The notes below the pieces were generated by a model. It was not told the DNA's origin. It saw only the letters and a list, made by a program, of their open reading frames with translations, and ran no database searches. This document shows, in pieces, positions 1,992-64,000 of a stretch of DNA of 64,000 bases (the stretch's first letter is position 1; every line of letters begins with the position of its first letter). The DNA is from an uncultured Candidatus Saccharibacteria bacterium. Its GTDB lineage: Bacteria; Patescibacteriota; Minisyncoccia; Phycocordibacterales; UBA2100. The translations under genes and the position numbers were made by a program. The DNA lies in NCBI GenBank assembly GCA_964586255.1, contig CAZPGE010000004.1, forward strand, positions 32,693-96,692, written 5' to 3'.

Positions 1992-1994
1992 TCT

Positions 1995-3239: not shown

Positions 3240-3240
3240 T

Positions 3241-3687: not shown

Positions 3688-3733
3688 CAGATAGCCCACC
3701 TGGTGCGGTGCAGTGTTCAACAAGACCTCGTGA

Positions 3734-7471: not shown

Positions 7472-8569
7472 ATGAAGATAACAACAACAAAAGAAAAACT
7501 TCTTAACGCGATATTGATGGTAGAGAGAATCACAGGAAAAAAAGAATCTCTCCCGATACTTTCTTGTGTTCTTATCGATACGACGAGTGACATAACACTT
7601 CGCGCTACAAATCTTGAAGCCGGTATTGAAGTGACCGTTCCCGGTGAAATATCAGAAAAAGGAGTTGTAGCTGTTTCAGCTACGATACTTTCACAAACTA
7701 TCCGCTCGATAGGTGGCGATAAAATATCGCTCTCAAGCGAAGAGGGGAATCTTCTTATCGAATCTCGCGGGACCAAGACACTTATAAAGGCAGTGCCTCA
7801 TGAGGAGTTCCCTGTGCTCTCAAGTGAATCAGGAAAATCAAACGTCTCTCTTTCCAGAGAGCGACTCATTCACGGTATTCAATCGGTTTCATACGCTGCA
7901 TCACCTTCGATGATTCGGCCGGACCTCGGAAGTATCTATATTTCTATCCAGGATGGTTCGATGGTCTGTGTCGCGACCGATTCGTTTCGTCTCGCCGAGA
8001 AGGTGGTTTCTGAGACCGGTTCTAAGACGTCGGATGAACTCCTTATCCCTCTCAAGCATGCACTCGAGCTCGTCCATGTACTCGAAAAACTCGATGATGA
8101 GAAGATTTCACTCTCGGCCGATGATTCACAGCTTGTTGTTGTGGGCTCCGGGACACGGTTTGTATCTCGTGTGGTCGATGCCACATTCCCCAACTATAAA
8201 GAAATTATTCCGAAAAAGTTTACGACTGAGGCCACAATGCTCAAAAATGACCTTGGTGAGATGCTCCGCAAAGCACGCGTGTTTTCAGGGAATGAGATGC
8301 ACGTGGGCCTCCATGTGTATCCGAAGAAAAAGATTTTTACTGCGACCGCGCGTAGTGCTGATGTAGGTGAGATGTCCGACTCTATCGATGCGGCCCTCTC
8401 AGGAGAGGATCTCGATATCAATTTCCACATAGGATATCTCGCCGACTGCCTGAGCTCTATCGCATCAGATTCTGTGATACTGAGTTTCTCCGGTGCAGGC
8501 CGTCCACTCGTGATTCGTGGTGTTTCGGATAGCAATTTCACATACCTGGTGATGCCACTCAACCGATAG
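7472..8569 (+). CDS. dnaN: DNA polymerase III beta sliding clamp
   Basis: 366 aa from the ATG at 7472, with three-domain clamp-like sequence. The ORF-track start at 7415 is probably an upstream extension. Confidence 0.9.
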   Translation: MKITTTKEKLLNAILMVERITGKKESLPILSCVLIDTTSDITLRATNLEAGIEVTVPGEISEKGVVAVSATILSQTIRSIGGDKISLSSEEGNLLIESRGTKTLIKAVPHEEFPVLSSESGKSNVSLSRERLIHGIQSVSYAASPSMIRPDLGSIYISIQDGSMVCVATDSFRLAEKVVSETGSKTSDELLIPLKHALELVHVLEKLDDEKISLSADDSQLVVVGSGTRFVSRVVDATFPNYKEIIPKKFTTEATMLKNDLGEMLRKARVFSGNEMHVGLHVYPKKKIFTATARSADVGEMSDSIDAALSGEDLDINFHIGYLADCLSSIASDSVILSFSGAGRPLVIRGVSDSNFTYLVMPLNR

Positions 8570-21647: not shown

Positions 21648-21703
21648 GGCGCTATTGTAACGCACTTCGCTCGTGAACGAGGTGTTACAATTTGCTCATC
21701 TAT

Positions 21704-26477: not shown

Positions 26478-27104
26478 ATGTTGTACTTCTATAGCGGGAC
26501 CGATACAGACAAGGCGAGAAATGCTCTCAACGGTTCTGTTGAAAAGCTGGCAAAAAAGACTCCCGTGGTTCGTATCACTGATGTGCATACGAGAGCAGAT
26601 GTAGACGCTGCACTTCAGGGTGGGGGCATGTTTGGAGGGGAGCGCGTTGTCGTTTTTGACAATGTCTATGCGAACGACGACTTACGAGAAGTTCTTGCAG
26701 AATCGCTACCAAGGATTGCTAAGTCTAAAGATATTTTTTTCATGATTGAGGGCGCGCTTGATGTCGCTACGCGAAAGTCGGTGGAGAAGTATGCGACCGA
26801 ATTTGAGCGCTTTGATGCGAAGAAAGCTGCCAAAGAGGAGACGATTTTCTCGCTCGCCAACGCGCTTCAGGCAGGGAAGAAGAAAGACCTGTGGGTCGGC
26901 TATCAGCGAGAGCTCCATAGTGGCAAAGCTCCGGAGGCGATACATGGCGTGCTTTTTTGGGCTGCAAAGCAGCTCCTCTTAAAATCTGATACACCAAGAG
27001 CCCGAGAGCTTGTGGCGGAGCTCGCCGCGCTGCCGCACGAAGCGAGGCGACAAGGCTTTGAGCTCGAATATGCACTCGAACACTTTGTCCTCTCACGCAC
27101 GTGA
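26478..27104 (+). CDS. holA: DNA polymerase III delta subunit-like protein (short HolA-like)
   Basis: Position and pattern ('VVVFDNVY...', 'LLK...AELAALPHEARRQGFELEYALE') resemble short delta subunits. Weak call. Confidence 0.45.
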   Translation: MLYFYSGTDTDKARNALNGSVEKLAKKTPVVRITDVHTRADVDAALQGGGMFGGERVVVFDNVYANDDLREVLAESLPRIAKSKDIFFMIEGALDVATRKSVEKYATEFERFDAKKAAKEETIFSLANALQAGKKKDLWVGYQRELHSGKAPEAIHGVLFWAAKQLLLKSDTPRARELVAELAALPHEARRQGFELEYALEHFVLSRT

Positions 27105-27121
27105 TAGTATTTATCTCACGT

Positions 27122-28870
27122 ATGCTCAAACAAATGCGAACAGCTTTTGTTGTCGTCTTTCTTAGTATCGTCGTCTCTGCTGTGTTTCTAGGCGCCCTTT
27201 CTTACATGCCACGTGAGACTGGGGCACTCTTCATGGACGCAGACATGATGTATTGCATCGGCTTGCCGTGCCCGTGTGGCAAAGGACCAGGTGGGAATCC
27301 CCCATCACCTTGCGGGGGCGTGGGGAAAGGCGTCCTTCAATGTCCATGCAAAGATTTGACAAGCGGATTCAGTACTACGGGGAAATGCTCTGCAGTCGGC
27401 GTTTGTACAGCTTCGGGCACGAGCGGTAAGGATGGTTTCGGTCTCGACCAAGTTTCGAAGATTCTCGGCGATCTCATGGGGAAGCTCATGGGGCAAAAAG
27501 GGGGGGATACGGCGCAACCGCCTCCACCGCCGGGCGGAGACACAGCCAGCAAGATTCCCCCCACATGTACACTCACCTCTAGTACGGTTTCTTCCAATGC
27601 ATCGTCCACCACAGCGACGCTCTCGTGGTCGAGCTCGTATGAAGCTACGAGCGCTTCGATAACGCCCAACATTGGCACCGTCTCAGTCAATGGCTCCCAA
27701 TCGATTACTATCACTGAGACGACCCCATACTCCATGTCGGTGACTGGGCCAGGAGGTACAGGGTACTGCTCTTCGATTGTGGTGGGTTTTGGCGACGGAA
27801 GCACAGACAAGTGCTCGGGCATCTTCGCAGATATCTATGGATGTGAAGATGATGGCGACGATGACGAAGAAACACCGGACACCAGCACTACGACCCCGGG
27901 TCTTTCGGCGAGTCCAACAGGTGGCACGGCACCTCTCACTGTCGTATTCACAGGCAATGCAGGCAGTGCGGGGTACACCATCAAGTATGGTGACGGTAAG
28001 ACCAATGCGGTCGGTTGCGAACACGGAAGCTGCTCACCGAGCGCTTCGCCACTCACCATCAACAGGAGTCACGTGTATGAACAGCCAGGTACGTACACCG
28101 CGAAGCTTCTCAAGCACTTCACCTCCGTGCAATCAAATTGCGCGGGCGAGGATTGCAACGCAATCGATTCCGTCACGATTACAGTCACCGCGCAGCAGAC
28201 TACTTCCGGTACGACGAACACGACAAGCTCAACAACCGTCCCTGTGTTCTCGAACCCCGCGTACCTATTGCCGGGCTTAAGGGGAGATATCAAAATGTTG
28301 AATTCTGGCGGCACGGTCGTCGTGGGTGCGCGCAATCAAAACAACACGGAGGTAGCAGGATTTTACGGCGGCACTACGTTCTCCGGGCCTGCGACTGGCG
28401 TGGTGGCGACGCTCTGCCGCACGCGACCGTGGGCAGGTAACTTCCTCTCGTATATACTCCCGGCCAATTTCTTTGACAGTCTCTGTGTCGCACGCGGCTA
28501 CACCGTCGGTGCGCCTGCTACTCAGCAGACAAGCGGCAGCGCGCAGACGACGGGCACGTCTCAGGCCAAGCCAAAGCCGACACAGAAGCCCGCAACTTCG
28601 ACCCCATCTGTATCCAATGTTCCTCCCAAAGTGCGGGTATGGGCAGTGCCGTCTACGGTGCCACTTGGCTCTCGTGCTTCGGTATTCTGGACTTCGCAGG
28701 GTGTGGCGAGCTGTCTCGTGGCGAGCCCAGACGGAAGTTTCTCTCAGACGACACTCTCTGGAGGTGCGTCCACTGTATCTCTCACGGGACCGACCACGTT
28801 TACGATTTCATGCCTCACCGCAGATGGGACTCCCATCACTGACTTCGTGACAATCAATCTCGCGATCTAG
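27122..28870 (+). CDS. Cys-rich, Ser/Thr-rich cell-surface protein with an N-terminal membrane anchor and Ig-like C-terminal modules
   Basis: N-terminal TM. Many Cys, a poly-P/G linker and an acidic DDGDDDEE stretch. The C-terminal about 85-aa module ('VWAVPSTVPLGSRASVFWTSQGVASCLVASP...ISCLTADG') is homologous to modules in the 35720 protein. Confidence 0.5.
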   Translation: MLKQMRTAFVVVFLSIVVSAVFLGALSYMPRETGALFMDADMMYCIGLPCPCGKGPGGNPPSPCGGVGKGVLQCPCKDLTSGFSTTGKCSAVGVCTASGTSGKDGFGLDQVSKILGDLMGKLMGQKGGDTAQPPPPPGGDTASKIPPTCTLTSSTVSSNASSTTATLSWSSSYEATSASITPNIGTVSVNGSQSITITETTPYSMSVTGPGGTGYCSSIVVGFGDGSTDKCSGIFADIYGCEDDGDDDEETPDTSTTTPGLSASPTGGTAPLTVVFTGNAGSAGYTIKYGDGKTNAVGCEHGSCSPSASPLTINRSHVYEQPGTYTAKLLKHFTSVQSNCAGEDCNAIDSVTITVTAQQTTSGTTNTTSSTTVPVFSNPAYLLPGLRGDIKMLNSGGTVVVGARNQNNTEVAGFYGGTTFSGPATGVVATLCRTRPWAGNFLSYILPANFFDSLCVARGYTVGAPATQQTSGSAQTTGTSQAKPKPTQKPATSTPSVSNVPPKVRVWAVPSTVPLGSRASVFWTSQGVASCLVASPDGSFSQTTLSGGASTVSLTGPTTFTISCLTADGTPITDFVTINLAI

Positions 28871-35719: not shown

Positions 35720-38197
35720 GTGCGGGAGATTCCTGCAAAAAAGCAAAGAAAGAGGTTCTTTTCCCCACGCGTTTCATTGCGTCGCCTCGGCGCAGGGCGC
35801 ATCATGGTGGACATGAGGAAGCGCTTTACGAGTCGCGGTTATTCTATTCTTGCCGCGCTCGTATTCGTCGCGCTCTTGGGGAGCATCACGGTCGCCGTAA
35901 ATTTCGCCACTCCATCAGTCAATCGGATGGCGATGTCAGCACTTGCTCCCGCGACGGGCAACGTACCTACGAGTGCGCCTGCAAGCACGGGAAAGGAGAG
36001 CGGACAGAAACAGCAATGCCAACCCGGATACGATTATGTAGTGAACAAAGATTCGAAAGGAAAACCCCAGGTTGCTGCGCAGCCAGTCTGTCCGCCTCCG
36101 GGCGAAGCTCCCAAGGGTCCCGAACAGATAAAGAGCACTCAGCAGGGTGCGGCGGCGCTCGCCCTCGCGCCAGGCACATTCGGGGAGCGCAACGACCCGG
36201 TGCGATGCGAGCTTGATGCCAAGACCAAGCAGTACAAACCTAAGAGCGACTATAAGTGCAAGGTCAAATACTGCATACCGGTTGGCGGCAACAAAAGTGA
36301 GTGTAAAGAAGTAGATAATTTGTTTGGAGCGAATAGCAGTATCGATCCTTCGGCCGTAGAGAAAGAATTGAGAGAGCCTTTGATCAAAGATATTTTAAAG
36401 AATACCGACCCATCTGAGCATCAAAAACTTCTGGGCGAAATGGGGGTATCTTCAGCGGATCAAGACATATTGAAAAAAGCATATGAGGAAGACAAGACGG
36501 AGACAAAGGCTGAGATTGCACGGAATAACAACAGATTGTCCGAAATAGAACAGGCGCTTTCAAATTGCGCATACGGTGGATGTGATGAAGGGCGCAATGC
36601 GCGAGATGCAAAGTTGCTAGAGGCCGAAAAAGCGGCGCTCGACGCAAGAAATGAGTCACTGCAGAAGCGTCTCAGTGTTCTCTCAGCTGCTGAACAACAG
36701 CATCTTAAGCCCGGCGTAGTGCCTGGCACCGACCAACCGGGCGTTGCGCAGGTCTGCAGCACGGCAGGTGGATGTGTAGGGCCAGATGGCAGACCGGTGC
36801 CCAAAAACACTTTCCGTGATCCGGGACCTGCTGCGCCGCAGGGACCCGCGGGGCCTGATTCGCCAGCACCGAGAAGTGGAGGTAATCCGATGGGATCTCT
36901 TGGCTCGCTCTTGCAAGGGCTCTTGAAGGGATTGAGCGGCTCAGGTGCGGGACAGGGTGCTCCATGCGCGTCTGATCCAAACGCGTATCAGCAACAACAG
37001 CAGCAGTATCAGATGCAGATGCAGCAGTACAACTACCAGCTGCAGCAATATAATTACCAACAGCAACAAGCGGCCACGTTTGGCGGCCCGCAGCCCCTTG
37101 CCCCTGTGCCTCCAGCGGCATGCACGCCGAACGCGGATTCAAATACATGTCCTGCCGCTCCTGTGCAGCCGAAGACGGGATGCGCCAATGGCTCATGGAA
37201 GCCCGTGACTACACAGGGGTCAAATGGACGCCAGTGCACTACAAACTGGCAGTGCACGCCAAGCAACGCGGTCACGCCGACCGCGGAACTCTCATGCCAG
37301 CCAAAGGTCGCCGATGTGGGAATGTCAGTGGCCATATCTTTTTCATGCGCCAACGCGACAGGAAGCTCGGGTGCTGGCGGGGGATTCTCCACCGACAATC
37401 AAACATCGGGTTCGACGACGACCGTGATAGCGACCCCGCCGACGGGTGCTACGGGCATCACGTACGCGCTCACATGCCGCAACGAGAATCTGACTGCTCG
37501 CGCTGAATGTAGTGTGCAGATATCAAAACCGACCATCGTGTTACTTGCCAATCCGAAGAATGTTGTCTCTGGGGAGTCCTCGAGAGTCGGATGGGTGACC
37601 AGTGGCATGCAGTCGTGCGTCGTATCGAGCCCTCAGATGCCGGGTTTCACTACGCAAAACGCGAGCAATAAAAACGTAAATGGTGTCGCAACAACCTCGC
37701 CACTCACACGCAATACCACGGTGGTACTGACATGCCAGACTATCGGGGGTAGCACAAAAGCGGCTTCGACCACAATAGTGGTGGGCAACAGCACATCGAC
37801 ATCGGTCATGACGGTCTCGTCGACTATTGATGGTCGGACGGATGTAAAACATGGCGCCTCTACGACGATTTCATGGCAGACACCTTCGGCACCGTCCAAC
37901 TCTGCGGTCGCGCTCTGGCTCGTCGATTCTCAGAGTGGTCAGGCGACAGGACTCATCCACCGCTCGGCAAACACGTCGGGCTCGTACGTGTGGGCGATTC
38001 CGGCCACGAGCTCACCATGCGCAGTCGATTCTCCTGCAGTTTGTGGTGCGGATCTCGTCGTTGGTCGCACGTATTCGATACAGGCGTCGCTTTTCACACC
38101 TCCCAATGCGTATCTTGGCGGACTTCCGCCAGCAGACCCTATAACACCGACGTACCTCGACGAAGCATCTACGGCGAACTTCAAGGTGAGTAACTAG
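35720..38197 (+). CDS. large Cys-rich, Q/N-rich cell-surface protein with repeated Ig-like modules (N-terminal membrane anchor)
   Basis: GTG start per the ORF track; an alternative ATG is at about 35804. Poly-Q/N tract QQQQQYQMQMQQYNYQLQQYNYQQQQ. Repeated modules 'V.W.SxG..SCxV.SP...........LTC.T.GG' are shared with the 27122 protein. Confidence 0.5.
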   Translation: MREIPAKKQRKRFFSPRVSLRRLGAGRIMVDMRKRFTSRGYSILAALVFVALLGSITVAVNFATPSVNRMAMSALAPATGNVPTSAPASTGKESGQKQQCQPGYDYVVNKDSKGKPQVAAQPVCPPPGEAPKGPEQIKSTQQGAAALALAPGTFGERNDPVRCELDAKTKQYKPKSDYKCKVKYCIPVGGNKSECKEVDNLFGANSSIDPSAVEKELREPLIKDILKNTDPSEHQKLLGEMGVSSADQDILKKAYEEDKTETKAEIARNNNRLSEIEQALSNCAYGGCDEGRNARDAKLLEAEKAALDARNESLQKRLSVLSAAEQQHLKPGVVPGTDQPGVAQVCSTAGGCVGPDGRPVPKNTFRDPGPAAPQGPAGPDSPAPRSGGNPMGSLGSLLQGLLKGLSGSGAGQGAPCASDPNAYQQQQQQYQMQMQQYNYQLQQYNYQQQQAATFGGPQPLAPVPPAACTPNADSNTCPAAPVQPKTGCANGSWKPVTTQGSNGRQCTTNWQCTPSNAVTPTAELSCQPKVADVGMSVAISFSCANATGSSGAGGGFSTDNQTSGSTTTVIATPPTGATGITYALTCRNENLTARAECSVQISKPTIVLLANPKNVVSGESSRVGWVTSGMQSCVVSSPQMPGFTTQNASNKNVNGVATTSPLTRNTTVVLTCQTIGGSTKAASTTIVVGNSTSTSVMTVSSTIDGRTDVKHGASTTISWQTPSAPSNSAVALWLVDSQSGQATGLIHRSANTSGSYVWAIPATSSPCAVDSPAVCGADLVVGRTYSIQASLFTPPNAYLGGLPPADPITPTYLDEASTANFKVSN

Positions 38198-39202: not shown

Positions 39203-39577
39203 ATGGAAAAAATAAAACCGCCCTATCAAAGTCGCATGAACACATTTAAAGGAATTGTGCAGGAGGGCTCCAAGCGAGCGCGGGCACTTGGGTATCCGAC
39301 CGCAAATATCAAGCAAGACGACCGCTCGATAAGCGGTGTGTATGCCGCAATCGTGCGTATCGACAAGGCGATGTATCATGCGGTGGCTTTTGCAGACCCT
39401 GCGAGGCAGCTTCTCGAAGCGCACATATTTGGAGTCAACGAATCGATGTACGGCCGGAATATGTCGATAGAGTTGATGCAGAAAATTCGCGAAACGGTGC
39501 GGTTCGAAGACGACGAAGCGCTTCGTCTTGCTATCGAAGAAGATATTGCAAAAGTCCGCGAATACTTTAATACATAG
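39203..39577 (+). CDS. monofunctional riboflavin kinase
   Basis: 'FKGIVQEGSKRARALGYPTANI' is a riboflavin kinase motif. The true start may be the internal Met (about 39236). Confidence 0.7.
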   Translation: MEKIKPPYQSRMNTFKGIVQEGSKRARALGYPTANIKQDDRSISGVYAAIVRIDKAMYHAVAFADPARQLLEAHIFGVNESMYGRNMSIELMQKIRETVRFEDDEALRLAIEEDIAKVREYFNT

Positions 39578-39582
39578 TGTAT

Positions 39583-40167
39583 ATGTTTGCCGGCATCATA
39601 GAAAAAAAGGCACGGGTTCTCAGTGCCGAGAAAAGTGGGCGGATTCTCCGCGTGCGCGTGGAAAAGCCACGTGCATGGAAGCTCGCACTCGGACAGAGTG
39701 TCAATATTGATGGCGTATGCTCGACGGTCGTCCACACTTTGGCCGCATCTTTCGATGTCGAATACATGCCCGAGACGCTCTCAAAGACGGCGGCCGGCTC
39801 GCTTGCGAAAGGGCGAGTGGTCAATCTCGAGCGCTCGCTCACGTATGGTCAGCGGATTGATGGGCATCCGGTGCAAGGTCATGTCGATACTTCGACACCG
39901 GTACACGAAATCCGTTCGCTTGGAAAATCGAAAGAGATTACCATCAAGCCGAGTGTACTTCTCGCTAGGCAGGCAGCGCTTCACGGTTCGATTGCTCTCA
40001 ATGGCGTGAGCCTCACGATTGCACGCAAACACGGGCCCAACATTACGGTCGCGCTTATCCCACACACGCTCTCTTCGACAAATCTCGGGGCGCTCAAGGT
40101 GGAGGATGAAGTTAATGTCGAATTCGACCACTCCGCCGCTTATCTGGCTGGGCTGCAAAAGAAGTGA
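39583..40167 (+). CDS. ribE: riboflavin synthase alpha subunit
   Basis: 'MFAGIIE' N-terminus and a duplicated lumazine-binding repeat ('GQSVNIDGVCSTV' / 'SIALNGVSLTI'). Confidence 0.8.
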   Translation: MFAGIIEKKARVLSAEKSGRILRVRVEKPRAWKLALGQSVNIDGVCSTVVHTLAASFDVEYMPETLSKTAAGSLAKGRVVNLERSLTYGQRIDGHPVQGHVDTSTPVHEIRSLGKSKEITIKPSVLLARQAALHGSIALNGVSLTIARKHGPNITVALIPHTLSSTNLGALKVEDEVNVEFDHSAAYLAGLQKK

Positions 40168-40179
40168 TACGGTGCCTGT

Positions 40180-40644
40180 ATGTTACGAAAAGAATTTCTC
40201 AAAAAGGCGCAGGTGCAAGATGCGTCAAAGCTGAAAATCGGCATTGCGGTCGCCGATTTTAATCCCGACATCACGGGGAGTATGCTGAGCGGCGCTCTCG
40301 AAGTACTCGGAGAATGGGGCGTCAAAGAAAAAAACATCACCGTATACCATGTATACGGCTCTTTCGACCTCACGTATGCGAGCGAGCTACTGCTGCGAAG
40401 CAAAAAGCCGGATGCGATTATTACGATCGGCTGCATCGTGAAAGGTGAGACCGACCACGACAAACACATCGCGTCTGCGGTATTCAATGGCCTCACGAAT
40501 CTCACTATCAAGTATGGGAAGCCGATTTCACTCGGTATCCTGACGACGAACAATCTTGCACAGGCAAAAGAGCGCTCGCGCGGCAAGACAAATCACGGCG
40601 AAAAGGCAGCCATCGCCGCCATGCGTGCCGCCCTCCTCAAGTAA
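40180..40644 (+). CDS. ribH: 6,7-dimethyl-8-ribityllumazine synthase
   Basis: 'KIGIAVADFNPDIT', 'VYHVYGSFDL' and 'IITIGCIVKGETDH' match the lumazine synthase family. Confidence 0.85.
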   Translation: MLRKEFLKKAQVQDASKLKIGIAVADFNPDITGSMLSGALEVLGEWGVKEKNITVYHVYGSFDLTYASELLLRSKKPDAIITIGCIVKGETDHDKHIASAVFNGLTNLTIKYGKPISLGILTTNNLAQAKERSRGKTNHGEKAAIAAMRAALLK

Positions 40645-55071: not shown

Positions 55072-55094
55072 CGTACTTCTCCCGGGGGTACAAG

Positions 55095-55126
55095 GCCGGC
55101 GCTTTTTGCGCCGGCTTTTGTTTTTT
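55095..55126 (+). terminator. intrinsic terminator (GCCGGCGC-ttttt-GCGCCGGC then TTTTGTTTTTT)
   Basis: Perfect 8-bp GC stem followed by a long T-run. Confidence 0.6.
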
Positions 55127-55152
55127 GCCTGTCTGCCGTACGGCAGGCTACA

Positions 55153-58100
55153 ATGACCCACATGTCCGAATCTCAGAAAAGCGACGTATCTAAGCGCGAA
55201 GAGGCTACACTCGCGTTTTGGAAAGAACACCAGATTTTCGAAAAATCGGTCAAAAAACACGCGCCTTTGGGCGAATATGTCTTTTACGACGGGCCACCAT
55301 TTGCTACAGGACTCCCGCACTATGGGCATATCGTGGCATCGGTCATAAAAGATGTGATACCTCGCTACTTCACGATGCGAGGCTACAGCGTGCCGCGCGT
55401 GTGGGGCTGGGACTGTCACGGACTTCCGATTGAAAATATCGTTGAAAAAGAGCTTGGTTTCAAACACAAGAAAGACATCTTGGAGATGGGTGTCGCGAAG
55501 TTCAACGAGCTCTGCCGCTCGAAAGTATTCACGTATGCGGATGAGTGGAAGAAGGTAATCCCGCGTATCGGTCGCTGGGCAGATATGGAGAAGCCGTATT
55601 TCACGATGAGCCGCGACTTTATGGAAAGCGTGTGGTGGGCTTTCAAACAGATATACGACAAAGGTCTCGTCTACGAAGACTATCGCTCAATGCATATCTG
55701 TCCGCGCTGCGAGACGACGCTTTCACAAAGCGAAGTCGCAGAAGGGTACAAAGATGTGAAAGACCTTGCTGTCACAGCGAAATTTAAGATAAAGAACCCG
55801 GAAAAGATTGGTTTGTCTGGAGATGTGTACATCCTTGCGTGGACGACAACGCCATGGACGCTGCCTGGCAATGTCGCGCTCGCCGTTGGGAATGAAATTG
55901 AATACGTAAAAGTTACCAATAAAGGTGCACATTCAACTTCAGTAACGATGGAATTGAAAAGCGGTGAAGTAACGAGACAAGTAAATCTTTCACCTGGAGT
56001 GTACATAATGTCTAAGGATTTCTTCCAGAGGAACGTCTATTCAAATGCGGGCGTCATGGAAGTTCGATACATGCTCGGAGATCCCGAAGAGACAAAACGT
56101 AACGTTCTAAAATATGCAAATGATTTTCAAGGATTTGCGGCGGTGTATGGCGTTGAGATTGTTAAAGGTGTGTCACTTGCAGGTCTCGCGTACGAACCAC
56201 TTTTCGACAGTTACTCTTCTGATACCAACCTCAAAAACAAAGAGAATGGCTGGAAAGTGTATGCAGCGGATTTCGTTACGACTGAAGATGGTACGGGTGT
56301 GGTCCATATCGCGCCCGCGTTTGGTTCCGACGACATGGCGCTCGGGAAAAAAGAGAATCTCCCGTTTGTGCAGCACGTCAGGATGGACGGTATCATAAGG
56401 CCCGAGGTGAAGGAGCTTGCCGGTCTTTCGGTAAAGCCGATAGATGATATTCAGTCGACGGATGTTGCAGTTATCAAATATCTGGCGGAAAAGGGACTGC
56501 TTTTTTCAAAGGAAAAATACGAGCACTCGTATCCGCATTGTTGGCGTTGCGATACGCCACTCATCAACTACGCGACCTCGTCGTGGTTTGTGAAAATCGA
56601 AGACCAGAAATCTGCACTTCTCAAAAATGCCGCGCCCATCAACTGGTCTCCAGCGCACATCAAAGAGGGGCGGTGGGGCAAGTGGCTCGAAGGTGCGCGT
56701 GACTGGTCTATATCACGCCAGCGCTTCTGGGCGAGCGTGATACCGATATGGGTCTGCGAAAAGTGCAAAGCGAAGCGGGTATTTGGCAGTGCCACAGAGC
56801 TCGAGGAAGCCAGTGGGAAAAAGATAGACGACTTGCACAAACATATCGTCGATGAGATTTCGTTTTCTTGCTCAGAGTGCGATGGCGTGATGCGACGCAT
56901 CCCCGATGTGCTCGATACGTGGTTTGACTCAGGCTCGATGCCGTATGGCCAGGCGCACTATCCCTTTGAGAACAAAGCTGCTTTTGAGAAGACGTTTCCG
57001 GCGCAATTCATCGCAGAAGGACAGGATCAGACACGCGCATGGTTTTACTACCTGCACGTGCTCTCCACGTCTATCTTCGGCAGGAATGCGTTTCAAAACG
57101 TAATCGTGAACGGCATCGTGCTCGCCGAGGATGGCAAGAAAATGTCAAAGCGCTTGCAAAACTACCCTGACCCGATGGAGATCGTGGAAAAATACGGCGC
57201 AGATGCGCTCCGCTATTACATGCTCTCGTCACCCGTCGTACAGGCTGAGAATCTCAATTTTTCTGAAAAAGGAGTTGATGAGGCGCTCAAAAAGAATATC
57301 GGACGTCTCGGCAACGTGCTCGCGTTCTACCAGCTGTACGCCGATGGTACGGTGCGCGATTGGAAGAGTGAGCACGTACTCGATACATGGATTATCGCGC
57401 GACTTGATTCGCTTATCGAAGAAGTCACCAAGGCGTTTGATGCGTACCAGCTCGACGCGGCGACGCGCCCGCTCGCACTCTTCATCGATGACCTCTCTGT
57501 ATGGTATCTGCGCCGCTCTCGCGACCGCTTTAAAGAAGATGGGGATGATAAAAAGGCGGCGCTCGCGACGCTGCGTTTTGTACTGCATAGGCTCTCACTC
57601 GTGATGGCGCCGTCGATGCCTTTCTTCGCAGAGCACCTCTTTCAGGCCGTGCGAGAGGGTGAGGATGAGGAGAGTGCACACCTTGCCTCATGGCCATCGG
57701 TCTCGTACCAGCCACGCTTCTGGGCGAAGCTCTTTGGGGGAAAGGACTCACGCTTGGTGCTCGAGGCGATGCAGGTTGCACGCAATGTCGTATCAAGCGC
57801 TCTTGAAGAGCGCGATACGGCTGGCATAAAAGTACGTCAGCCGCTCTCCAAGCTCTCCATACCATCTTCCCTCAAACTCGCGGAGGAGTACCTCGCAATC
57901 ATTGCCGACGAGGTGAATGTGAAAAAAGTGGAGAGGCTTGGCGATGCTATAAGACTTGATGTTGAGATTACCGACGAATTGAAAGAGGAGGGAGTTGTGA
58001 GGGATACTATTCGCGAAATACAGGCATTTCGTAAAGAGCAGGGACTCAAGCCAGGAACATCTGCCACATATACGTTTGTAAAAGACGAACCTCGACGGAG

Positions 58101-58167
58101 TGTTATAGAGAAGAATCGCACGAAGATAGAAGACACGACATCGACAATGATTGTGTTTGTGGAATAG
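55153..58167 (+). CDS. ileS: isoleucine--tRNA ligase, type 2 (eukaryote/archaea-like form)
   Basis: 'GPPFATGLPHYGHI' (type-2 HIGH region), 'KMSKRLQNYPDP' (KMSKS), CP1 editing domain. 1004 aa. Confidence 0.9.
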   Translation: MTHMSESQKSDVSKREEATLAFWKEHQIFEKSVKKHAPLGEYVFYDGPPFATGLPHYGHIVASVIKDVIPRYFTMRGYSVPRVWGWDCHGLPIENIVEKELGFKHKKDILEMGVAKFNELCRSKVFTYADEWKKVIPRIGRWADMEKPYFTMSRDFMESVWWAFKQIYDKGLVYEDYRSMHICPRCETTLSQSEVAEGYKDVKDLAVTAKFKIKNPEKIGLSGDVYILAWTTTPWTLPGNVALAVGNEIEYVKVTNKGAHSTSVTMELKSGEVTRQVNLSPGVYIMSKDFFQRNVYSNAGVMEVRYMLGDPEETKRNVLKYANDFQGFAAVYGVEIVKGVSLAGLAYEPLFDSYSSDTNLKNKENGWKVYAADFVTTEDGTGVVHIAPAFGSDDMALGKKENLPFVQHVRMDGIIRPEVKELAGLSVKPIDDIQSTDVAVIKYLAEKGLLFSKEKYEHSYPHCWRCDTPLINYATSSWFVKIEDQKSALLKNAAPINWSPAHIKEGRWGKWLEGARDWSISRQRFWASVIPIWVCEKCKAKRVFGSATELEEASGKKIDDLHKHIVDEISFSCSECDGVMRRIPDVLDTWFDSGSMPYGQAHYPFENKAAFEKTFPAQFIAEGQDQTRAWFYYLHVLSTSIFGRNAFQNVIVNGIVLAEDGKKMSKRLQNYPDPMEIVEKYGADALRYYMLSSPVVQAENLNFSEKGVDEALKKNIGRLGNVLAFYQLYADGTVRDWKSEHVLDTWIIARLDSLIEEVTKAFDAYQLDAATRPLALFIDDLSVWYLRRSRDRFKEDGDDKKAALATLRFVLHRLSLVMAPSMPFFAEHLFQAVREGEDEESAHLASWPSVSYQPRFWAKLFGGKDSRLVLEAMQVARNVVSSALEERDTAGIKVRQPLSKLSIPSSLKLAEEYLAIIADEVNVKKVERLGDAIRLDVEITDELKEEGVVRDTIREIQAFRKEQGLKPGTSATYTFVKDEPRRSVIEKNRTKIEDTTSTMIVFVE

Positions 58168-58169
58168 TC

Positions 58170-58742
58170 ATGTACCAGAAATACAACACCGAAGCGCTGG
58201 TCTTGGGGAGTCGAGAGAGCGGGGAGAGCGACCGCACGATGGTGCTCTTCACAAAGGACTTTGGACTCGTTCGCGCTCGTGCGACTGCCGTGCGGAGCGA
58301 AAAATCAAAGATGCGCTATGCGCTGCAAAACTACTCGCTCGCCAATGTCTCGCTCGTGCGAGGAAAGAAGAGTTGGCGAGTGGCGGGCGCGACCGCGCTC
58401 AAGCTTGCGACTGGTGATGTCCGCGCTGTCGGCACATTTGCTCGTTCGTCGGAGCTCGTCGTCAGGCTCGTCCATGGCGAAGAGCAGAATCCGTACCTCT
58501 ATGCGGCTCTCGTGGAGGCACACAGTGCTCTCATGCGAGACAATGTTGAGGCGTTCGGGACCATAGAAATCGTCTGTGTAGCCCGAGTCCTGTATTCGCT
58601 CGGCTACATTTCTGCGGAAGCTCTCGAGACAGCGCTGTTTACGCATACTGCATATACGGGTGAACATCTCATGGAAGCAGAGACCATGCGCGACAAACTA
58701 CTTTCTTCTATCAATAAGGCCATTGCGGAAACACAGCTCTAA
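58170..58742 (+). CDS. recO: DNA repair protein RecO (short form)
   Basis: N-terminal OB-fold 'TEALVLGSRESGESDRTMVLFTKDFGLV' is RecO-like. Abuts the ileS stop. Confidence 0.65.
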   Translation: MYQKYNTEALVLGSRESGESDRTMVLFTKDFGLVRARATAVRSEKSKMRYALQNYSLANVSLVRGKKSWRVAGATALKLATGDVRAVGTFARSSELVVRLVHGEEQNPYLYAALVEAHSALMRDNVEAFGTIEIVCVARVLYSLGYISAEALETALFTHTAYTGEHLMEAETMRDKLLSSINKAIAETQL

Positions 58743-58757
58743 AGCTAATCTCTCCGT

Positions 58758-59195
58758 ATGATAACCATTTCTCAACTTACAGAAGCGACAGCGAACTCTA
58801 TTGCCGAACTTAATACGCTCATGCGCGAACTCCGCACCGAACAATCCGGCGATGCCATTAACAGTGTCGACGACATGACGCTGCTGCTGAGCGATAAAAA
58901 TATTGTCGTCATGACGGTGAAAGACGACGAAAAGATTGTTGGTGTTGCCACTCTGTATATAGTGCCCAAAATCGGGAAGACCGTCGCGTACATCGAAGAT
59001 GTCGTCGTGAGTAGCGCGTATCGTGGACAGGGGTTGGGCGAGAAACTCGTGCGCAAAGTCATCGAAACCGCGAGAAGTAGGCATGTCAAAAGTGTAGGGC
59101 TTACCTCGCGTCCGGCACGAGAAGCAGCAAATAAGCTCTACCAAAAGATTGGCTTCAATCGCAAGGAGACGAACGTCTACAAGCTCGCTCTCTAA
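58758..59195 (+). CDS. GNAT-family N-acetyltransferase
   Basis: Acetyl-CoA binding motif 'VVVSSAYRGQGLGEKLVRKVIETAR'. Confidence 0.75.
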   Translation: MITISQLTEATANSIAELNTLMRELRTEQSGDAINSVDDMTLLLSDKNIVVMTVKDDEKIVGVATLYIVPKIGKTVAYIEDVVVSSAYRGQGLGEKLVRKVIETARSRHVKSVGLTSRPAREAANKLYQKIGFNRKETNVYKLAL

Positions 59196-59199
59196 CCAT

Positions 59200-60354
59200 A
59201 TGGCGCGGGTGAAGATAAGCGAATATAAGGCGAAGAAGATTCTCTTTGGGGAGGCGTACGATGGTCTACAGTTGCGCACAGGCGAGTCCATGAATATCCC
59301 GGATGGACACTGGGTGGCGAAAGTCGACCAGGGCGTCAAGAAGCGCTTCAAGCAAGGGCTTGTCGCTGTCGACAAACCGAAGGCTGAGATACTCACTGCA
59401 ATCGCCGAGTGGGAGAAAAAAGGATTCACGCAATTCGTCCTTGAGCCGTATTTTGAACACGAGGAGACAGAGGAGCAGTACCTCTCTCTCGAGAGAGTCC
59501 GAGGAGGAGTGCGCGTGCTGCATGCGTCGGGAGGAGGGATCAATATAGAGGAGCACCCTGAAGCGGTCGGACGTTACATTATATCTGAGGAAGCTGATAT
59601 CGCAGGAATTGCGAAAAAGACCAAGGTTCCGGAGTCTTTCCTGTCGCGCCTGTACGCAATATTCAATGCGAGCCACTTTTCATTCTTGGAGATTAATCCG
59701 CTCATCGTGCGAAGTGAAGACGTGTATGCGCTCGATGCGGCCGTGCTCGTCGACAGTGCGGCGGAGTTTTTCGTTTCTGGCATCTGGAGCGACGATGACG
59801 TCGTGAAGACAAAAGCGAAACATGTCGCCGAGGAGCGCGTAGAAGCGCTTGCGGCGACCACACCCGCGGCTCTCAAGCTCTCCGTAATCAATCCCAACGG
59901 CGCGCTCTTCTTCCTGCTCTCAGGTGGAGGCGGAAGTATCGTAATTGCTGATGAGGCACAGCTTGAGGGTGTCGGACACCTCATAGCGAATTACGGAGAA
60001 TACAGCGGCGGTCCGACTCGCGAAGAAACATACCTGTATTCAAAAGAGATAATCGGCATGATGATTGAATCGAAGGCGCACAAGAAAGCGCTCGTGATTG
60101 CGGGCGGGGTCGCAAATTTTACCGATGTGAAAAAGACTTTTCTCGGTATCATAGATGCGCTCAAAGAGCGCTCGGAAGAATTGCGGACGCAGGGTACAAA
60201 GATATTTGTTCGGCGTGGTGGTCCCAATGAAAAGGTGGGCTTGCAGCTCATGCGCGATTTCTTACAAAACGAAGGGCTTCTAGGCGCAGTCTACGGCTCG
60301 GACGTCGTCATTACACAAGCGGTGGACGATGCCATTCAATATATCCGCATATGA
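59200..60354 (+). CDS. aclB: ATP-citrate lyase beta subunit (ATP-grasp, citrate-binding)
   Basis: Strong similarity to the ACLY N-terminal half: 'FSFLEINPLIV...VYALDAAVLVD', 'ANYGEYSGGPTREETYLYSKEI', 'IAGGVANFTDVKKTF', 'IFVRRGGPNEKVGLQLM'. ATG at 59200; the ORF track extends upstream. Confidence 0.8.
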   Translation: MARVKISEYKAKKILFGEAYDGLQLRTGESMNIPDGHWVAKVDQGVKKRFKQGLVAVDKPKAEILTAIAEWEKKGFTQFVLEPYFEHEETEEQYLSLERVRGGVRVLHASGGGINIEEHPEAVGRYIISEEADIAGIAKKTKVPESFLSRLYAIFNASHFSFLEINPLIVRSEDVYALDAAVLVDSAAEFFVSGIWSDDDVVKTKAKHVAEERVEALAATTPAALKLSVINPNGALFFLLSGGGGSIVIADEAQLEGVGHLIANYGEYSGGPTREETYLYSKEIIGMMIESKAHKKALVIAGGVANFTDVKKTFLGIIDALKERSEELRTQGTKIFVRRGGPNEKVGLQLMRDFLQNEGLLGAVYGSDVVITQAVDDAIQYIRI

Positions 60355-62150
60355 AAACTATACTTGAAGAAGTGAGAGCGGGTGCAGACGGAATCCTCGT
60401 CGTCGGAAATCATCCGCAGATTGTGCAGGCGATTCTCGATTTCGATTACTTGGCAAGCAAGGAGAGCCCTTCGGTCGTCGGAGTTATCTCGGGTACACGC
60501 AAAGCGCAAAAGTTCTTTTACGGTACGGGAGAAGTGCTCGTACCGTGCTTCGGCAGTGTTCGTTTGATGCCTGAGACGCTGCGACCGCGTGTGAAATGGA
60601 TGCTTAACGCACAGTCGGGTCGGCGTACCTTCGAGTCGACCGTCGCCTTCTTTGAGACTTTTCCCGACGCACTCGGAGGTCACTTGTTTGCGGAAAACGT
60701 GCCGGAGATTCATGCGACCGAATTAATACGCCGTTTCGGAAAAAAATATGTCATCGCGGGACCGTCCGGCGTGGGCATCCTCGTGTCCGGTGCACTCAAG
60801 CTAGGTGCGATAGGCGGTACCGACGCGTCGCAAATACGAGCGAGCAAGCTCGCATCGCGGGGCTCTGTCGCCGTCGTATCGACTTCAGGGGGCATGACCA
60901 ACGAACTTATTCGTGCGGTCTCGGGTGCTGGAAAACGCGTGTCATTCTCGATATCGATAGGCGGAGACCGGTTCCCAGTGACAGGTCTCTCTGACGTGCT
61001 CCGCTTGGCTGAGAGCGACGTTGATACAAAAGCCATCGTCTATTTCGGGGAGCTCGGTGGCTCTGACGAATACGAGATAGTGGAGATGCTTGAGAAAAAA
61101 GAGCTGACGAAACCCATAATTTGTTACATTGCGGGAGTTATCGACGAAGCATTCGATGAGCACATGCAGTTTGGACACGCGAAGGCGCTCGTGGCTACAA
61201 AGGACCAAAGTGCGCGCGCGAAGCGAAGCGCTCTCGCGTCGGCTGGTGCCACGGCGCCCGAGACATTCCCCGGGTTTCTCAAGGCACTTACTGAGCTGCC
61301 GCTTCCGGATATTCGTGATACCGTCGTGGATATGGATCCACTTGAGAATCGTAAAGCGAGCATCCTTTCGACGAGAGAGATAGTTGATTTGGATACAGTG
61401 CCTGTTTTTGTACAAGCAGGTGCACTCGTAAAGCAAAAAGAAAATGCATTTGCGGGGGCGACGATGCAGGCTCTTCTCGGGCATGAAGTGTCGCCTGAGA
61501 CTGCTGCATTTGTAGAAAATATATTTGAACTCCTTATCGACCATGGGGGCCATGTCTCCGGCGCAGTCAATACGATGGTGAGTGCTCGCGCAGGAAAGGA
61601 CATGGTGTCGTCGCTCGCATCAGGTCTCCTTACGATAGGTCCACGCTTTGGCGGCGCGGTCAATGAAGCGGCGCGTGCATGGCTCGAGGGCAGCGAATCG
61701 GCCGTGCCCGCGATGGAGTATGTGGAGAAAAAGACTCGTGCGGGAGCACTCCTGAGCGGCATTGGCCACCGCAAATACCGCGTAGGGATTCCTGATCCGC
61801 GTGTTGCAGCGCTTTCAGAGTTTGCATCGCTGCTCAAAAAGCATCCATACTACGATTTTGCACGCGAAGTGGAGAAGGTGACGACCGGGAAGAACGGCAA
61901 CCTCATACTCAATGTCGATGGTGTTATGGCCGCGCTCCTTCTCGACATGCTCGCCGAGAAAGAAGGCGTATCAAAAGAAGAGCTTCACGAGCTTGTGGAT
62001 GCGGAATTTTTCAACGCACTCTTCATAATTCCGCGATCTGTGGGCTTTATCGCTCATTTTCTCGAACAGAAACGCAACGACGAAGGGCTCTTCCGTCTTC
62101 CTGACGAGCTCCTCTTTGAGAAGAAAAGCGAAAAAAAGAAGAAGAATTAG
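60351..62150 (+). CDS. aclA: ATP-citrate lyase alpha subunit (CoA-binding + phosphohistidine domain + citrate-synthase-like C-terminal domain)
   Basis: 'STSGGMTNE' (SucD-like), phospho-His loop 'QFGHAKALV', C-terminal 'SGIGHRKYRVGIPDPRV' (citrate-synthase-like). Start overlaps the aclB stop (ATGA). Confidence 0.8.
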   Translation: MKTILEEVRAGADGILVVGNHPQIVQAILDFDYLASKESPSVVGVISGTRKAQKFFYGTGEVLVPCFGSVRLMPETLRPRVKWMLNAQSGRRTFESTVAFFETFPDALGGHLFAENVPEIHATELIRRFGKKYVIAGPSGVGILVSGALKLGAIGGTDASQIRASKLASRGSVAVVSTSGGMTNELIRAVSGAGKRVSFSISIGGDRFPVTGLSDVLRLAESDVDTKAIVYFGELGGSDEYEIVEMLEKKELTKPIICYIAGVIDEAFDEHMQFGHAKALVATKDQSARAKRSALASAGATAPETFPGFLKALTELPLPDIRDTVVDMDPLENRKASILSTREIVDLDTVPVFVQAGALVKQKENAFAGATMQALLGHEVSPETAAFVENIFELLIDHGGHVSGAVNTMVSARAGKDMVSSLASGLLTIGPRFGGAVNEAARAWLEGSESAVPAMEYVEKKTRAGALLSGIGHRKYRVGIPDPRVAALSEFASLLKKHPYYDFAREVEKVTTGKNGNLILNVDGVMAALLLDMLAEKEGVSKEELHELVDAEFFNALFIIPRSVGFIAHFLEQKRNDEGLFRLPDELLFEKKSEKKKKN

Positions 62151-62186: not shown

Positions 62187-64000
62187 ATGGACGACTTTGA
62201 GCAGGAGAAGATAGAGCGCTTACGAAGGGCGATGTATAGCCGGTCTCTCTCAGGGAATCTCAAAGAGCGTCCGCGCCGCGACTTTGCGGGCGTCGACCCA
62301 CTTGTAGGCGAAGACTGGGCGGAAGACGATGAGCCTCTTTCAGGTTCGCGTGTGGCGCCGCGCGTCATCGGGTACACACGCAAAGCGCTGTGGTGGTTCT
62401 TGGGCGCATCGATAGCATTTTTTATCGTTGCCCTCGGATTCTTCGTGTACTACTTCACGCTCGGTGGCGGAAGTGCCGCAGCTGCACCCGGAAATATAGA
62501 CATCACGATTTCAGGCCCACCGCAGATTGCGAGCGGGGAACCTACGAAACTTCAGGTTGAGGTGACCAACCGCAACAAAGTCTCACTCGAGCTCGCAGAC
62601 CTTATCATCACGTATCCTGATGGTACGCGTTCACCGCTCGACTTCCAGACCGACTTTCCAAGCCAACGCATCACACTCGGCTCAATCGAGCCGGGAGGTC
62701 GCAGGCAGGGCACCGTCACCGCCGTATTTTCGGGTGAGAGTGGTGTCGCGGAACAAGTGCATGTGGAGCTTGAATACCGCGTGCAAGGCTCGAGCGCGAT
62801 ATTTGTCGCTAAAGAGGATTACAGTCTTGTGCTCAGTACATCGCCAATTACACTTTCAATCGACGGCAACACACAGACGACATCCGGCCAGCCAGTACAA
62901 TTCACCATCAATGCATCCTCTAATGCGAGTGCGCCTCTTCGCGATGTGCTCGTGAGTGTCGCGTACCCGTTTGGTTTTAAATTCACCTCGTCGACGCCGG
63001 CCCCCGTCGGACAAGGTCTCTGGGCGATAGGCGATCTTGCACCAGGAGAGAGGAAGTCGATATTTGTAAGTGGCGTGCTCTCGGGTGAGAGTGGCGATGA
63101 GCGGGTCTTCCGCATCACGACGGGGACCCGTCCTTCTGCTGACGTGACGACGATTTCCAACGTGCTGGCCACCAATTCGTACGAGGTGCAGATATCGCAG
63201 GCGTTCTTGGGTCTTGCGGTGACGGTCAATAAGCAGAGCGGCTCAAACGTCGTCGCTGCGCCGAGTGAAAACGTGCTTGTCACCGTCTCGTACCAAAACA
63301 ATCTCTCCACTGAGATAACTGATGCCATCGTCGTCGCTCGGCTTACCGGGCTCTCTATTGATGGCGCATCGGTGCATTCGATAGACGGATTCTATCGCTC
63401 CACCGACGAGACGGTCTTGTGGGACAAAACGACAACGGGTGGTGCACTTGCGTCACTTGCACCGGGCGCAAAGGGGACGCTGTCGTTTTCTTTTCAAATG
63501 CCCTCTAACGAAGAGCTCAAAAATATTGTAAATCCCAAGCTCTCACTTAGTATCAATGCTGCGGGCAAACGTGTTTCTGAGAGCGGCGTCCCGCAAAGTC
63601 TCCAATCGGCAGTGCGACAGGACGTGAAGCTCGCCTCTGACCTTCAGCTCAACGCGCAGGGGCTCTACTATGCAAACCCATTTGGTTCTACGGGCCCGAT
63701 ACCTCCAAAGGCCGGTACCGAGACCACCTATGCGCTCGTACTCACTATCACCAATACCACCAACAAGCTCACGGGCGCGAAAGTGACCGCGGCGCTCCCT
63801 TCGTATGTGCGATGGATTGGCTCGTATGCTCCGGCAAGCGAACAGCTCAAATTTAATGAGACAGACGGAACGTTTACGTGGACAATCGGAGATATCGGGG
63901 AGAATGTAGGAGTCGGAGGCAATCAGCCGAAACAAATTGCCATCGGCATTGCGCTGACCCCATCGACCAGTCAGATAGGACAGCAGCCGGCTTTGTTGCA
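62187..64000 (+). CDS. large cell-surface protein with repeated CARDB/DUF11-like beta-sandwich modules (partial; continues beyond the window end)
   Basis: ATG at 62187 and an open frame to nt 64000, checked codon by codon. N-terminal TM 'ALWWFLGASIAFFIVALGFFVYYF'. Repeated 'LAPGERKSIFVSGVL' and 'LAPGAKGTLSFSFQM'-type motifs. Not in the ORF track because no stop lies in the window. Confidence 0.55.
   Translation, partial: MDDFEQEKIERLRRAMYSRSLSGNLKERPRRDFAGVDPLVGEDWAEDDEPLSGSRVAPRVIGYTRKALWWFLGASIAFFIVALGFFVYYFTLGGGSAAAAPGNIDITISGPPQIASGEPTKLQVEVTNRNKVSLELADLIITYPDGTRSPLDFQTDFPSQRITLGSIEPGGRRQGTVTAVFSGESGVAEQVHVELEYRVQGSSAIFVAKEDYSLVLSTSPITLSIDGNTQTTSGQPVQFTINASSNASAPLRDVLVSVAYPFGFKFTSSTPAPVGQGLWAIGDLAPGERKSIFVSGVLSGESGDERVFRITTGTRPSADVTTISNVLATNSYEVQISQAFLGLAVTVNKQSGSNVVAAPSENVLVTVSYQNNLSTEITDAIVVARLTGLSIDGASVHSIDGFYRSTDETVLWDKTTTGGALASLAPGAKGTLSFSFQMPSNEELKNIVNPKLSLSINAAGKRVSESGVPQSLQSAVRQDVKLASDLQLNAQGLYYANPFGSTGPIPPKAGTETTYALVLTITNTTNKLTGAKVTAALPSYVRWIGSYAPASEQLKFNETDGTFTWTIGDIGENVGVGGNQPKQIAIGIALTPSTSQIGQQPALL

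Follow-up and report, generated by a model that had tools for sequence, protein, structure and literature searches.

A two-subunit ATP-citrate lyase of candidate phyla radiation bacteria, repeatedly encoded beside acetyltransferase and amino-sugar genes, with a possible role in acetyl-CoA supply

The aclBA locus

The stretch of DNA analysed here (the window) comprises 64,000 nucleotides (from contig CAZPGE010000004.1), is part of a 178.8-kb ENA contig and encodes on its forward strand two co-directional genes that are assigned to a two-subunit ATP-citrate lyase (ACL). The gene aclB (59200..60354) codes for the beta subunit of 384 aa with ATP-grasp and citrate-binding domains, and aclA (60351..62150) for the alpha subunit of 599 aa, which combines a CoA-binding/phospho-His domain with a C-terminal citryl-CoA lyase (citrate-synthase-like) module, as recognized by comparison with Pfam and the PDB. 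The two genes overlap by 4 nt (ATGA). In the list of open reading frames (ORFs) the aclB-like frame extends from 59149 to 60354 with a TTG start codon; the ATG at 59200, which leads to the 384-aa AclB, agrees with the gene call of the source contig and with the length of most homologues (376-400 aa).

Enzyme identity

AclB reaches 97.2 bits with the ACL-type ATP-grasp family PF24948 (Citrate_synth_N, cutoff 83) and 171 bits with PF16114 (Citrate_bind, cutoff 26.8), the citrate-binding domain specific to ACL, while AclA is covered by Ligase_CoA, Succ_CoA_lig (SCS-flavodoxin; SCS, succinyl-CoA synthetase) and Citrate_synt, with PF00285 scoring 93.9 bits over residues 363-582. In searches of the PDB, residues 16-584 of AclA align in a single stretch with human ACLY (E 7e-101) and the protein equally finds Methanothrix concilii ACLY-B (E 1e-96), with AclB matching residues 55-418 of human ACLY (E 9e-53) and the M. 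concilii protein (E 9e-50). Chlorobium AclA follows with E 1e-60 (1e-32 for AclB against the Chlorobium entry 6hxj), and SCS-alpha (approximately 1e-18), the small subunit of citryl-CoA synthetase (CCS; 3e-15) and citrate synthase (2e-11) are found with lesser scores.

Residue equivalences were taken from the PDB alignments and their positions then checked. The presumed phosphohistidine His276 (codon 61176..61178, human H760) resides in the motif FGHAKA and is accompanied by Glu115 (60693..60695, human E599). In the lyase module, His398 (61542..61544, human H900), His473-Arg474 (61767..61772, human H975-R976, in GIGHRKY) and the predicted catalytic aspartate of citryl-CoA lyase, Asp523 (61917..61919, human D1026, in LNVDG), are present, all codons being on the forward strand. 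E115, H276, H398, H473 and D523 are invariant across 29 aligned AclA homologues down to 28% identity. AclB, aligned to 3mwd, keeps the equivalents of human G309, N346, T348 and R379 in YSGGP (268), ANFT (305) and VRRGGP (337), which are the citrate-binding residues in structures of human ACLY with citrate. Because full-length matches to ACL are combined with retained catalytic and citrate-binding residues, the sequence data support the assignment of aclB-aclA as a bona fide two-subunit ACL, which is probably catalytically competent.

Two other assignments were considered and rejected. As a pair of SCS and citrate synthase the genes fail, with NCBIfam models far under cutoff (for example 100 versus 336 bits and 62 versus 421 bits). 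As a CCS/citryl-CoA lyase (CCL) system they reach E values of 3e-15, 3e-14 and 2e-12 versus approximately 1e-101 for ACLY, and the lyase is here fused to the alpha subunit.

An earlier note on this DNA, made from the letters alone, had read two overlapping ORFs of about 385 and 599 aa as ACL and had quoted two AclA motifs. The ORFs are present (384 and 599 aa), the motifs are located at residues 275-279 (GHAKA) and 472-485 (GHRKYRVGIPDPRV), and the full-length Pfam and PDB matches bear out the enzyme name. The catalytic His276 and the lyase Asp523, which the note had singled out for inspection, are in place and invariant in the 29 homologues, and the placement with SCS plus citrate synthase, which it had named as a refuting outcome, is countered by the ACLY match of E 7e-101 with SCS and citrate synthase models remaining under cutoff.

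Host organism

The gene inventory covers the 64-kb window and approximately 9.5 kb beyond it, together approximately 73 kb, and includes dnaA, dnaN, PBP1, RuvABC, PolA, a Mur ligase, BacA and parts of pilus and type IV secretion systems (T4SS), together with ribosomal proteins, tRNA synthetases and a small number of genes for riboflavin. Over this length no central-carbon gene and no gene of the reductive tricarboxylic acid (rTCA) or TCA cycle was found, the enzymes looked for including 2-oxoglutarate:ferredoxin oxidoreductase, fumarate reductase, PFOR, aconitase and isocitrate dehydrogenase. Two further statements of the earlier note hold in this respect, namely that no other rTCA enzyme is located nearby and that the genome is of the reduced type characteristic for the candidate phyla radiation (CPR): the window genes serve replication, translation, cell wall and pilus/T4SS, and the names of close homologues are CPR names. 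Among the 120 best AclA homologues (67-95% identity) those that are named belong to Ca. Kaiserbacteria, Paceibacterota or Parcubacteria, and the nearest GTDB species representative by AclA is 'Parcubacteria group bacterium Athens0416_74' with 94%. These genes and homologues assign the host to CPR bacteria of the Kaiserbacteria/Paceibacteria type.

It might be argued that aclBA entered the contig through chimeric assembly, misbinning or a very recent horizontal transfer and is uninformative on CPR biology, as several GTDB records with this ACL clade are titled Gammaproteobacteria, Gemmatimonadetes or Dormiibacterota. However, the identical aclBA locus occurs in two further assemblies, thus in three independent assemblies in total, and eight related metagenome-assembled genomes (MAGs; L006-L012 and L051 in our numbering of loci, AclA identity 71-77%) keep all or most of the gene order IleRS-RecO-GNAT-aclBA-DUF11-aaRS-AI-2E-MetRS (aaRS, aminoacyl-tRNA synthetase; IleRS and MetRS, those for isoleucine and methionine). 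Synteny with CPR housekeeping genes is kept over 57-94% AclA identity, the gene junctions are 4 nt apart or overlapping, the G+C content of aclBA resembles the remainder of the window, and the CPR clade of ACL is monophyletic with deep internal divergence. The oddly titled records have CPR-type neighbours, so that mislabelling is more likely. Because the locus recurs in three assemblies, with synteny in eight MAGs and matching G+C, aclBA is considered native to its host, and contamination or recent transfer is effectively excluded.

As an observation in its own right, thirteen GTDB records (L015, L019, L023, L024, L030, L032, L035, L036, L041, L046, L049, L055 and L057) combine CPR-clade aclBA and CPR-type neighbours with a title of Gammaproteobacteria, Gemmatimonadetes, Dormiibacterota or Pseudomonadales, probably through wrong labelling or binning.

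Distribution and phylogeny

When a single genome of each GTDB species was scanned, at least 537 genomes with a relative were recovered. The 57 closest matches are sequences of the CPR clade, the full-length ones among them being 42-94% identical to the window AclA, and most of their titles refer to Kaiser-, Pacei-, Sacchari-, Levy- or Magasanikbacteria or to the Patescibacteria group; some records are titled, for example, 'uncultured Gammaproteobacteria' and have CPR-type neighbours. The next tier, with 35-39% AclA identity, consists of Promethearchaeota (Asgard), Thermoplasmata, Methanotrichaceae, Woesearchaeota, Cloacimonadota and Myxococcota. Dojkabacteria, Saccharibacteria, a DPANN archaeon (Norongarragalinales) and Chlorobiaceae provide further members among the representatives at 50% identity.

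In neighbour-joining (NJ) trees with 100 bootstraps, simple distance trees in which the deep branching order is not resolved, CPR AclA forms one clade with a bootstrap of 100 when Chlorobiaceae serve as outgroup, and CPR AclB shows the same split (100/100). Its members come from Kaiser-, Pacei-, Sacchari-, Levy-, Magasanik- and Dojkabacteria. The neighbours of this clade, with weak support, are another clade that contains Saccharibacteria and the DPANN sequence, and the eukaryote-like, Thermoplasmata, Asgard and Methanotrichaceae AclA group apart from it, as do the Chlorobiaceae. As to the phylogeny that the earlier note had called for, the pair groups with ACLs in the NJ trees, within the CPR clade.

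Two Promethearchaeia/Promethearchaeota loci (L066 and L067) carry in addition a second pair of a shorter AclB-like (352-372 aa) and an AclA-like (289 aa) protein. In L066 this pair, presumably an SCS- or citryl-CoA-synthetase-like paralogue, adjoins the full aclBA.

Gene context of aclBA

The context was compared across 79 loci from the GTDB species scan, 56 within the CPR clade and 23 outside, with ORFs called and clustered in flanks of 10 kb. Adjoining aclB-aclA genes in the same orientation are the rule on both sides (54/56 CPR and 21/23 other loci), with the 4-nt overlap as the commonest junction. The surroundings differ. Outside the CPR, aconitase or isocitrate dehydrogenase (IDH) is encoded within two genes of aclBA in 17 of the 23 loci (970 bits for the flanking aconitase and 647 bits for IDH by NCBIfam), while neither was detected in any of the 56 CPR loci (1.01 Mb).

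This observation bears on the classical role of ACL, in which it would cleave citrate for CO2 fixation in a full or partial rTCA cycle with partner genes elsewhere in the genome. ACL is the usual marker of this cycle, the inspected part of the genome amounts to approximately 73 kb, and a few Parcubacteria carry partial TCA enzymes (PMC5220378). Nevertheless, this role appears very improbable: neither the window nor the DNA flanking it yielded an rTCA or TCA gene, aconitase and IDH are consistently absent from the CPR loci unlike from other ACL loci, the CPR clade is separate from the Chlorobiaceae ACL, and CPR bacteria are reported to be without a full TCA cycle (PMC9530719).

The CPR loci possess a neighbourhood of their own. 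At least one of GNAT, GlmS, GlmM, MurB, acetyl-CoA synthetase (ACS; AMP- or ADP-forming) and Tdh/Kbl is encoded within two genes of aclBA in 33 of the 56 CPR loci, but in none of the 23 non-CPR loci. Most of these neighbours are verified by curated models (GlmS 745 bits, GlmM 448, MurB 191, AMP-forming acetate-CoA ligase 745 and Kbl 581), with Tdh scoring under its cutoff, and the GNAT neighbours fall into three sequence clusters, all of Pfam Acetyltransf_1 or Acetyltransf_3. Operon-like distances to aclBA, between -14 and +26 nt on the same strand, are observed for GNAT in 15 loci, for GlmS in three, GlmM in two and MurB in three, and for Kbl, Tdh and ACS in one locus each. GNAT, the most frequent neighbour, is located within two genes of aclBA in 20/56 CPR loci and in 7/16 AclA lineages defined at 60% identity. 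In a Pfam census of 147 flanking genes GNAT ranks first (14 genes) and MurB second (7), while among random distal genes of the same loci (two sets of 150) GNAT lies outside the top 25 families and thus occurs at most twice per set. A hidden Markov model seeded with the neighbouring GNATs, a design which is biased, gave 20/213 versus 2/711, in agreement with the unbiased census. A CPR-wide ACL clade that is never linked to TCA genes in these loci and is repeatedly operon-linked to acetyltransferase and amino-sugar genes is possibly new.

In the window itself, the GNAT-family N-acetyltransferase gene (58758..59195, forward strand; 145 aa, Pfam Acetyltransf_1 77 bits) ends 4 nt ahead of the aclB start. 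No NCBIfam equivalog reaches its cutoff with this protein, and the AlphaFold model, derived from the single sequence and with a pLDDT of 66 mediocre, finds the GNAT fold in a fold search without separating glucosamine-6-phosphate N-acetyltransferase (GNA1) from other GNATs. The PDB entry 6yug ranks second whether the search is made with the single sequence or with a profile, and first in the single-sequence search is 3fb3, presumably T. brucei GNA1. Aligned to the Cryptosporidium parvum GNA1 (CpGNA1), the window protein keeps T117 and Y127, replaces R141 by K, H81 by D, R113 by S and E119 by R, and has a gap at R73; the sugar-phosphate-binding residues of CpGNA1 are R73, H81, R113, T117, E119 and R141 (PMC7587441). 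The function of the GNAT may be to consume acetyl-CoA or to exert feedback by lysine acetylation, and a small-molecule amine, for example an amino sugar, is an equally conceivable target.

With respect to database labels, 6yug bears the name 'Diamine acetyltransferase' in the sequence table but is titled C. parvum GNA1 with acetyl-CoA and glucose-6-P, so that the table name can mislead searches made by sequence only.

Proposed role

Since family membership and the conserved residues point to the known catalytic cycle, AclB would bind ATP and citrate, His276 of AclA would be phosphorylated, citryl-phosphate and subsequently citryl-CoA would be formed, and the lyase module with His398, His473 and Asp523 would split citryl-CoA into acetyl-CoA and oxaloacetate. 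Citrate, for which no internal source or sink is visible, would be provided by the organism on which the bacterium lives or by the environment. The acetyl-CoA could serve the adjacent GNAT and N-acetylation in the synthesis of UDP-GlcNAc and UDP-MurNAc, the precursors of peptidoglycan on whose route GlmS, GlmM and MurB act, and the oxaloacetate could enter malate or pyruvate fermentation. ACS and Tdh/Kbl would represent alternative makers of acetyl-CoA, as fits a gene cluster around an 'acetyl-CoA node'. Because the clade is CPR-wide, lacks linkage to TCA genes and has acetyltransferase and amino-sugar neighbours, a eukaryote-like supply of acetyl-CoA from citrate is suggested, and with moderate confidence, as the gene context is the guide to the role, we consider AclBA a native ACL of the CPR clade that cleaves scavenged citrate to provide acetyl-CoA for acetylation and amino sugars and does not participate in an rTCA cycle.

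Citrate cleavage in the same catalytic direction could alternatively be catabolic: fermentation of the oxaloacetate via malate or pyruvate would balance redox and yield energy, and biosynthetic acetyl-CoA would be secondary. This variant seems unlikely, as cleavage itself yields no net ATP and the genes found most often and most closely beside aclBA consume acetyl-CoA or belong to amino-sugar synthesis (GNAT, GlmS, GlmM and MurB) and not to fermentation; moreover, the AMP-forming ACS and Tdh/Kbl neighbours make acetyl-CoA, a better fit to a supply module.

Some neighbours would fit a reversal of the flux. Tdh-Kbl is operon-adjacent to aclBA in L016 (6449-8832) and L047, and an archaeal-type phosphoenolpyruvate (PEP) carboxylase (PF14010, 445 bits) is encoded on the same strand three to four genes (approximately 3 kb) upstream of aclBA in L024, L032 (4229-5821) and L036, all of one CPR lineage. 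ACL might then run backwards as a citrate synthase that conserves ATP (acetyl-CoA + oxaloacetate + ADP + Pi -> citrate + ATP), with PEP carboxylase providing the oxaloacetate and acetyl-CoA being derived from threonine via Tdh/Kbl or from pyruvate. The reaction operates close to equilibrium, and reverse ACL as citrate synthase is described for Desulfobacter postgatei. On the other hand, no aconitase or IDH that would use the citrate is encoded near any of the 56 CPR ACL loci, a fermenter would gain equal ATP via ADP-forming ACS or Pta-AckA with oxaloacetate spared, the AMP-forming ACS next to ACL in L025 (7063-8805) would create a futile sequence, and GNAT, GlmS, GlmM and MurB as neighbours would be left unexplained. 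We regard the reverse operation as quite unlikely. L041 (3-1958) and L060 are further loci listed with the acetyl-CoA-related neighbours of L016/L047 and L025.

The preferred reading, cleavage of scavenged citrate for acetyl-CoA supply, has nonetheless to be weighed against a number of observations. GNAT adjoins aclBA in only 20 of the 56 loci (7 of 16 lineages), 23/56 are without any of the listed neighbours, and an abundance of cell-wall genes is in any case usual in CPR genomes. Since the loci are not independent of one another in phylogeny, the significance of the enrichment is overstated, and the figures show a pattern rather than a strict probability. PEP carboxylase, a producer of oxaloacetate, near aclBA in one lineage and ADP-forming ACS in another fit other flux directions, the ACL reaction being reversible and near equilibrium. 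The top PDB matches of the window GNAT include GNA1 entries, but other GNATs score similarly in single-sequence and profile searches. No citrate transporter was identified in the approximately 73 kb read of the 179-kb contig, and with this coverage other sources of acetyl-CoA or TCA genes are possible elsewhere in the genome.

A further-reaching proposal, which we put forward only tentatively and hold to be rather doubtful in its full extent, is that CPR bacteria carry an ancient ACL lineage of their own that has left the TCA cycle and been recruited into an operon for acetyl-CoA supply (with GNAT, GlmS, GlmM, MurB, ACS and Tdh/Kbl), host citrate being the main acetyl donor for peptidoglycan and other acetylations. 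If true, this would constitute a bacterial counterpart of the eukaryotic route from citrate to cytosolic acetyl-CoA and would identify a specific metabolite of the host that CPR episymbionts depend on.

Flanking genes and further features of the window

Upstream of the GNAT gene, IleRS (55153-58167) and a RecO-like gene (58170-58742) are tightly packed on the forward strand (55153..58742), the gaps measuring 2 and 15 nt. Just ahead of IleRS are sites resembling a terminator (55092-55118) and a promoter (55125-55154), and no strong terminator is present between IleRS and aclA; spacing and sites suggest that IleRS-RecO is possibly cotranscribed with GNAT-aclBA. Directly downstream of aclA follows a DUF11/NPCBM_assoc surface-like protein of 659 aa on the same strand (62187..64000), which runs past the window end, is conserved only in the Kaiserbacteria-like group and is not functionally linked to aclBA by any observation.

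In three CPR loci (within L043-L060, L065) an Fe/Mn superoxide dismutase is encoded within two genes of aclBA. These neighbours may relate to the oxic adaptations reported for Saccharimonadia (PMC12577380).

Elsewhere in the window, the cumulative GC skew reaches its minimum (6-8 kb) at dnaA (5823-7175) and dnaN (7415-8569), and the chromosomal replication origin is probably contained in the window. Positions approximately 1-3700 harbour a conjugation/T4SS-like cluster with a TraG-type P-loop ATPase, a TraC-like protein, a T4SS pilin and two domainless ORFs. Flavokinase, riboflavin synthase and lumazine synthase are encoded in a row at 39236-40644 in a genome otherwise biosynthetically poor, and the ORFs 21692-23602, 27101-28870 and 35720-38197 (636, 589 and 825 aa) are without Pfam match.

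Previous work and significance

No dedicated study of ACL in CPR bacteria was found in the literature. The enrichment of aclAB in Saccharimonadia MAGs is stated in passing (PMC12577380), a preprint notes CPR sequences in CCS/CCL trees, and eukaryotic ACL has been placed with DPANN and Thermoplasmatota in a work that does not discuss the CPR clade in its main text (PMC11976288). KEGG-type pipelines already call the CPR pair ACL, as seen from JGI names, while NCBI names many CPR AclA 'citrate/2-methylcitrate synthase' or 'hypothetical protein', and such names can mislead metabolic reconstructions. Equally, metagenome surveys that use ACL as an rTCA marker would mis-score ACL-positive CPR genomes.

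CPR/Patescibacteria constitute a large share of bacterial diversity, with their host-derived metabolites and the source of their acetyl-CoA being largely unknown. A CPR-specific ACL clade leads to the testable proposal that imported citrate is a source of acetyl-CoA and oxaloacetate and provides a sizeable bacterial group for ACL phylogenies concerned with eukaryotic origins.

Comparison with known systems

With Chlorobium AclBA (6hxj) the CPR enzyme shares the two-subunit aclB-aclA operon and the same chemistry and residues. However, the Chlorobium ACL is more distant in sequence (approximately 30% identity to the Chlorobiaceae representative P0185) and serves the autotrophic rTCA cycle, of which there is no sign here. 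The Hydrogenobacter-type CCS and CCL (6hxq, 6hxp) perform the same two-step chemistry with homologous modules, but are three separate proteins with an unfused lyase, while CPR AclA has the lyase fused. SCS and citrate synthase show the folds from which the ACL modules descend; the CPR protein has the Citrate_bind domain that is specific to ACL. From all well-studied prokaryotic ACLs the CPR enzyme differs in the lack of rTCA/TCA partners at the locus and in its location in a symbiont-type genome.

The arrangement of a small GNAT gene tightly linked to the gene for an acetyl-CoA-forming enzyme resembles acsA-acuA/Pat, where a GNAT lysine acetyltransferase is encoded beside, and regulates, acetyl-CoA synthetase, although the CPR GNATs gave no sequence-level assignment to AcuA or Pat by NCBIfam.

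The closest resemblance is with human ACLY (6hxh/6poe) and Methanothrix (Methanosaeta) concilii ACLY-A/B (6hxi/6znw), the best PDB matches, with which the CPR ACL shares the order of ATP-grasp, citrate-binding, CoA-binding/phospho-His and lyase modules and all catalytic and citrate-binding residues, and to which it is closer than to the Chlorobium enzyme. The CPR genes are nevertheless split and without the long eukaryotic linker, the identity to eukaryotic and archaeal ACLY is approximately 35-39% only, with the CPR sequences in a clade of their own (bootstrap 100), and the archaeal relatives adjoin aconitase or IDH, as CPR aclBA does in none of the 56 loci. In its proposed role, the supply of acetyl-CoA outside the TCA cycle, the CPR enzyme would resemble cytosolic ACLY.

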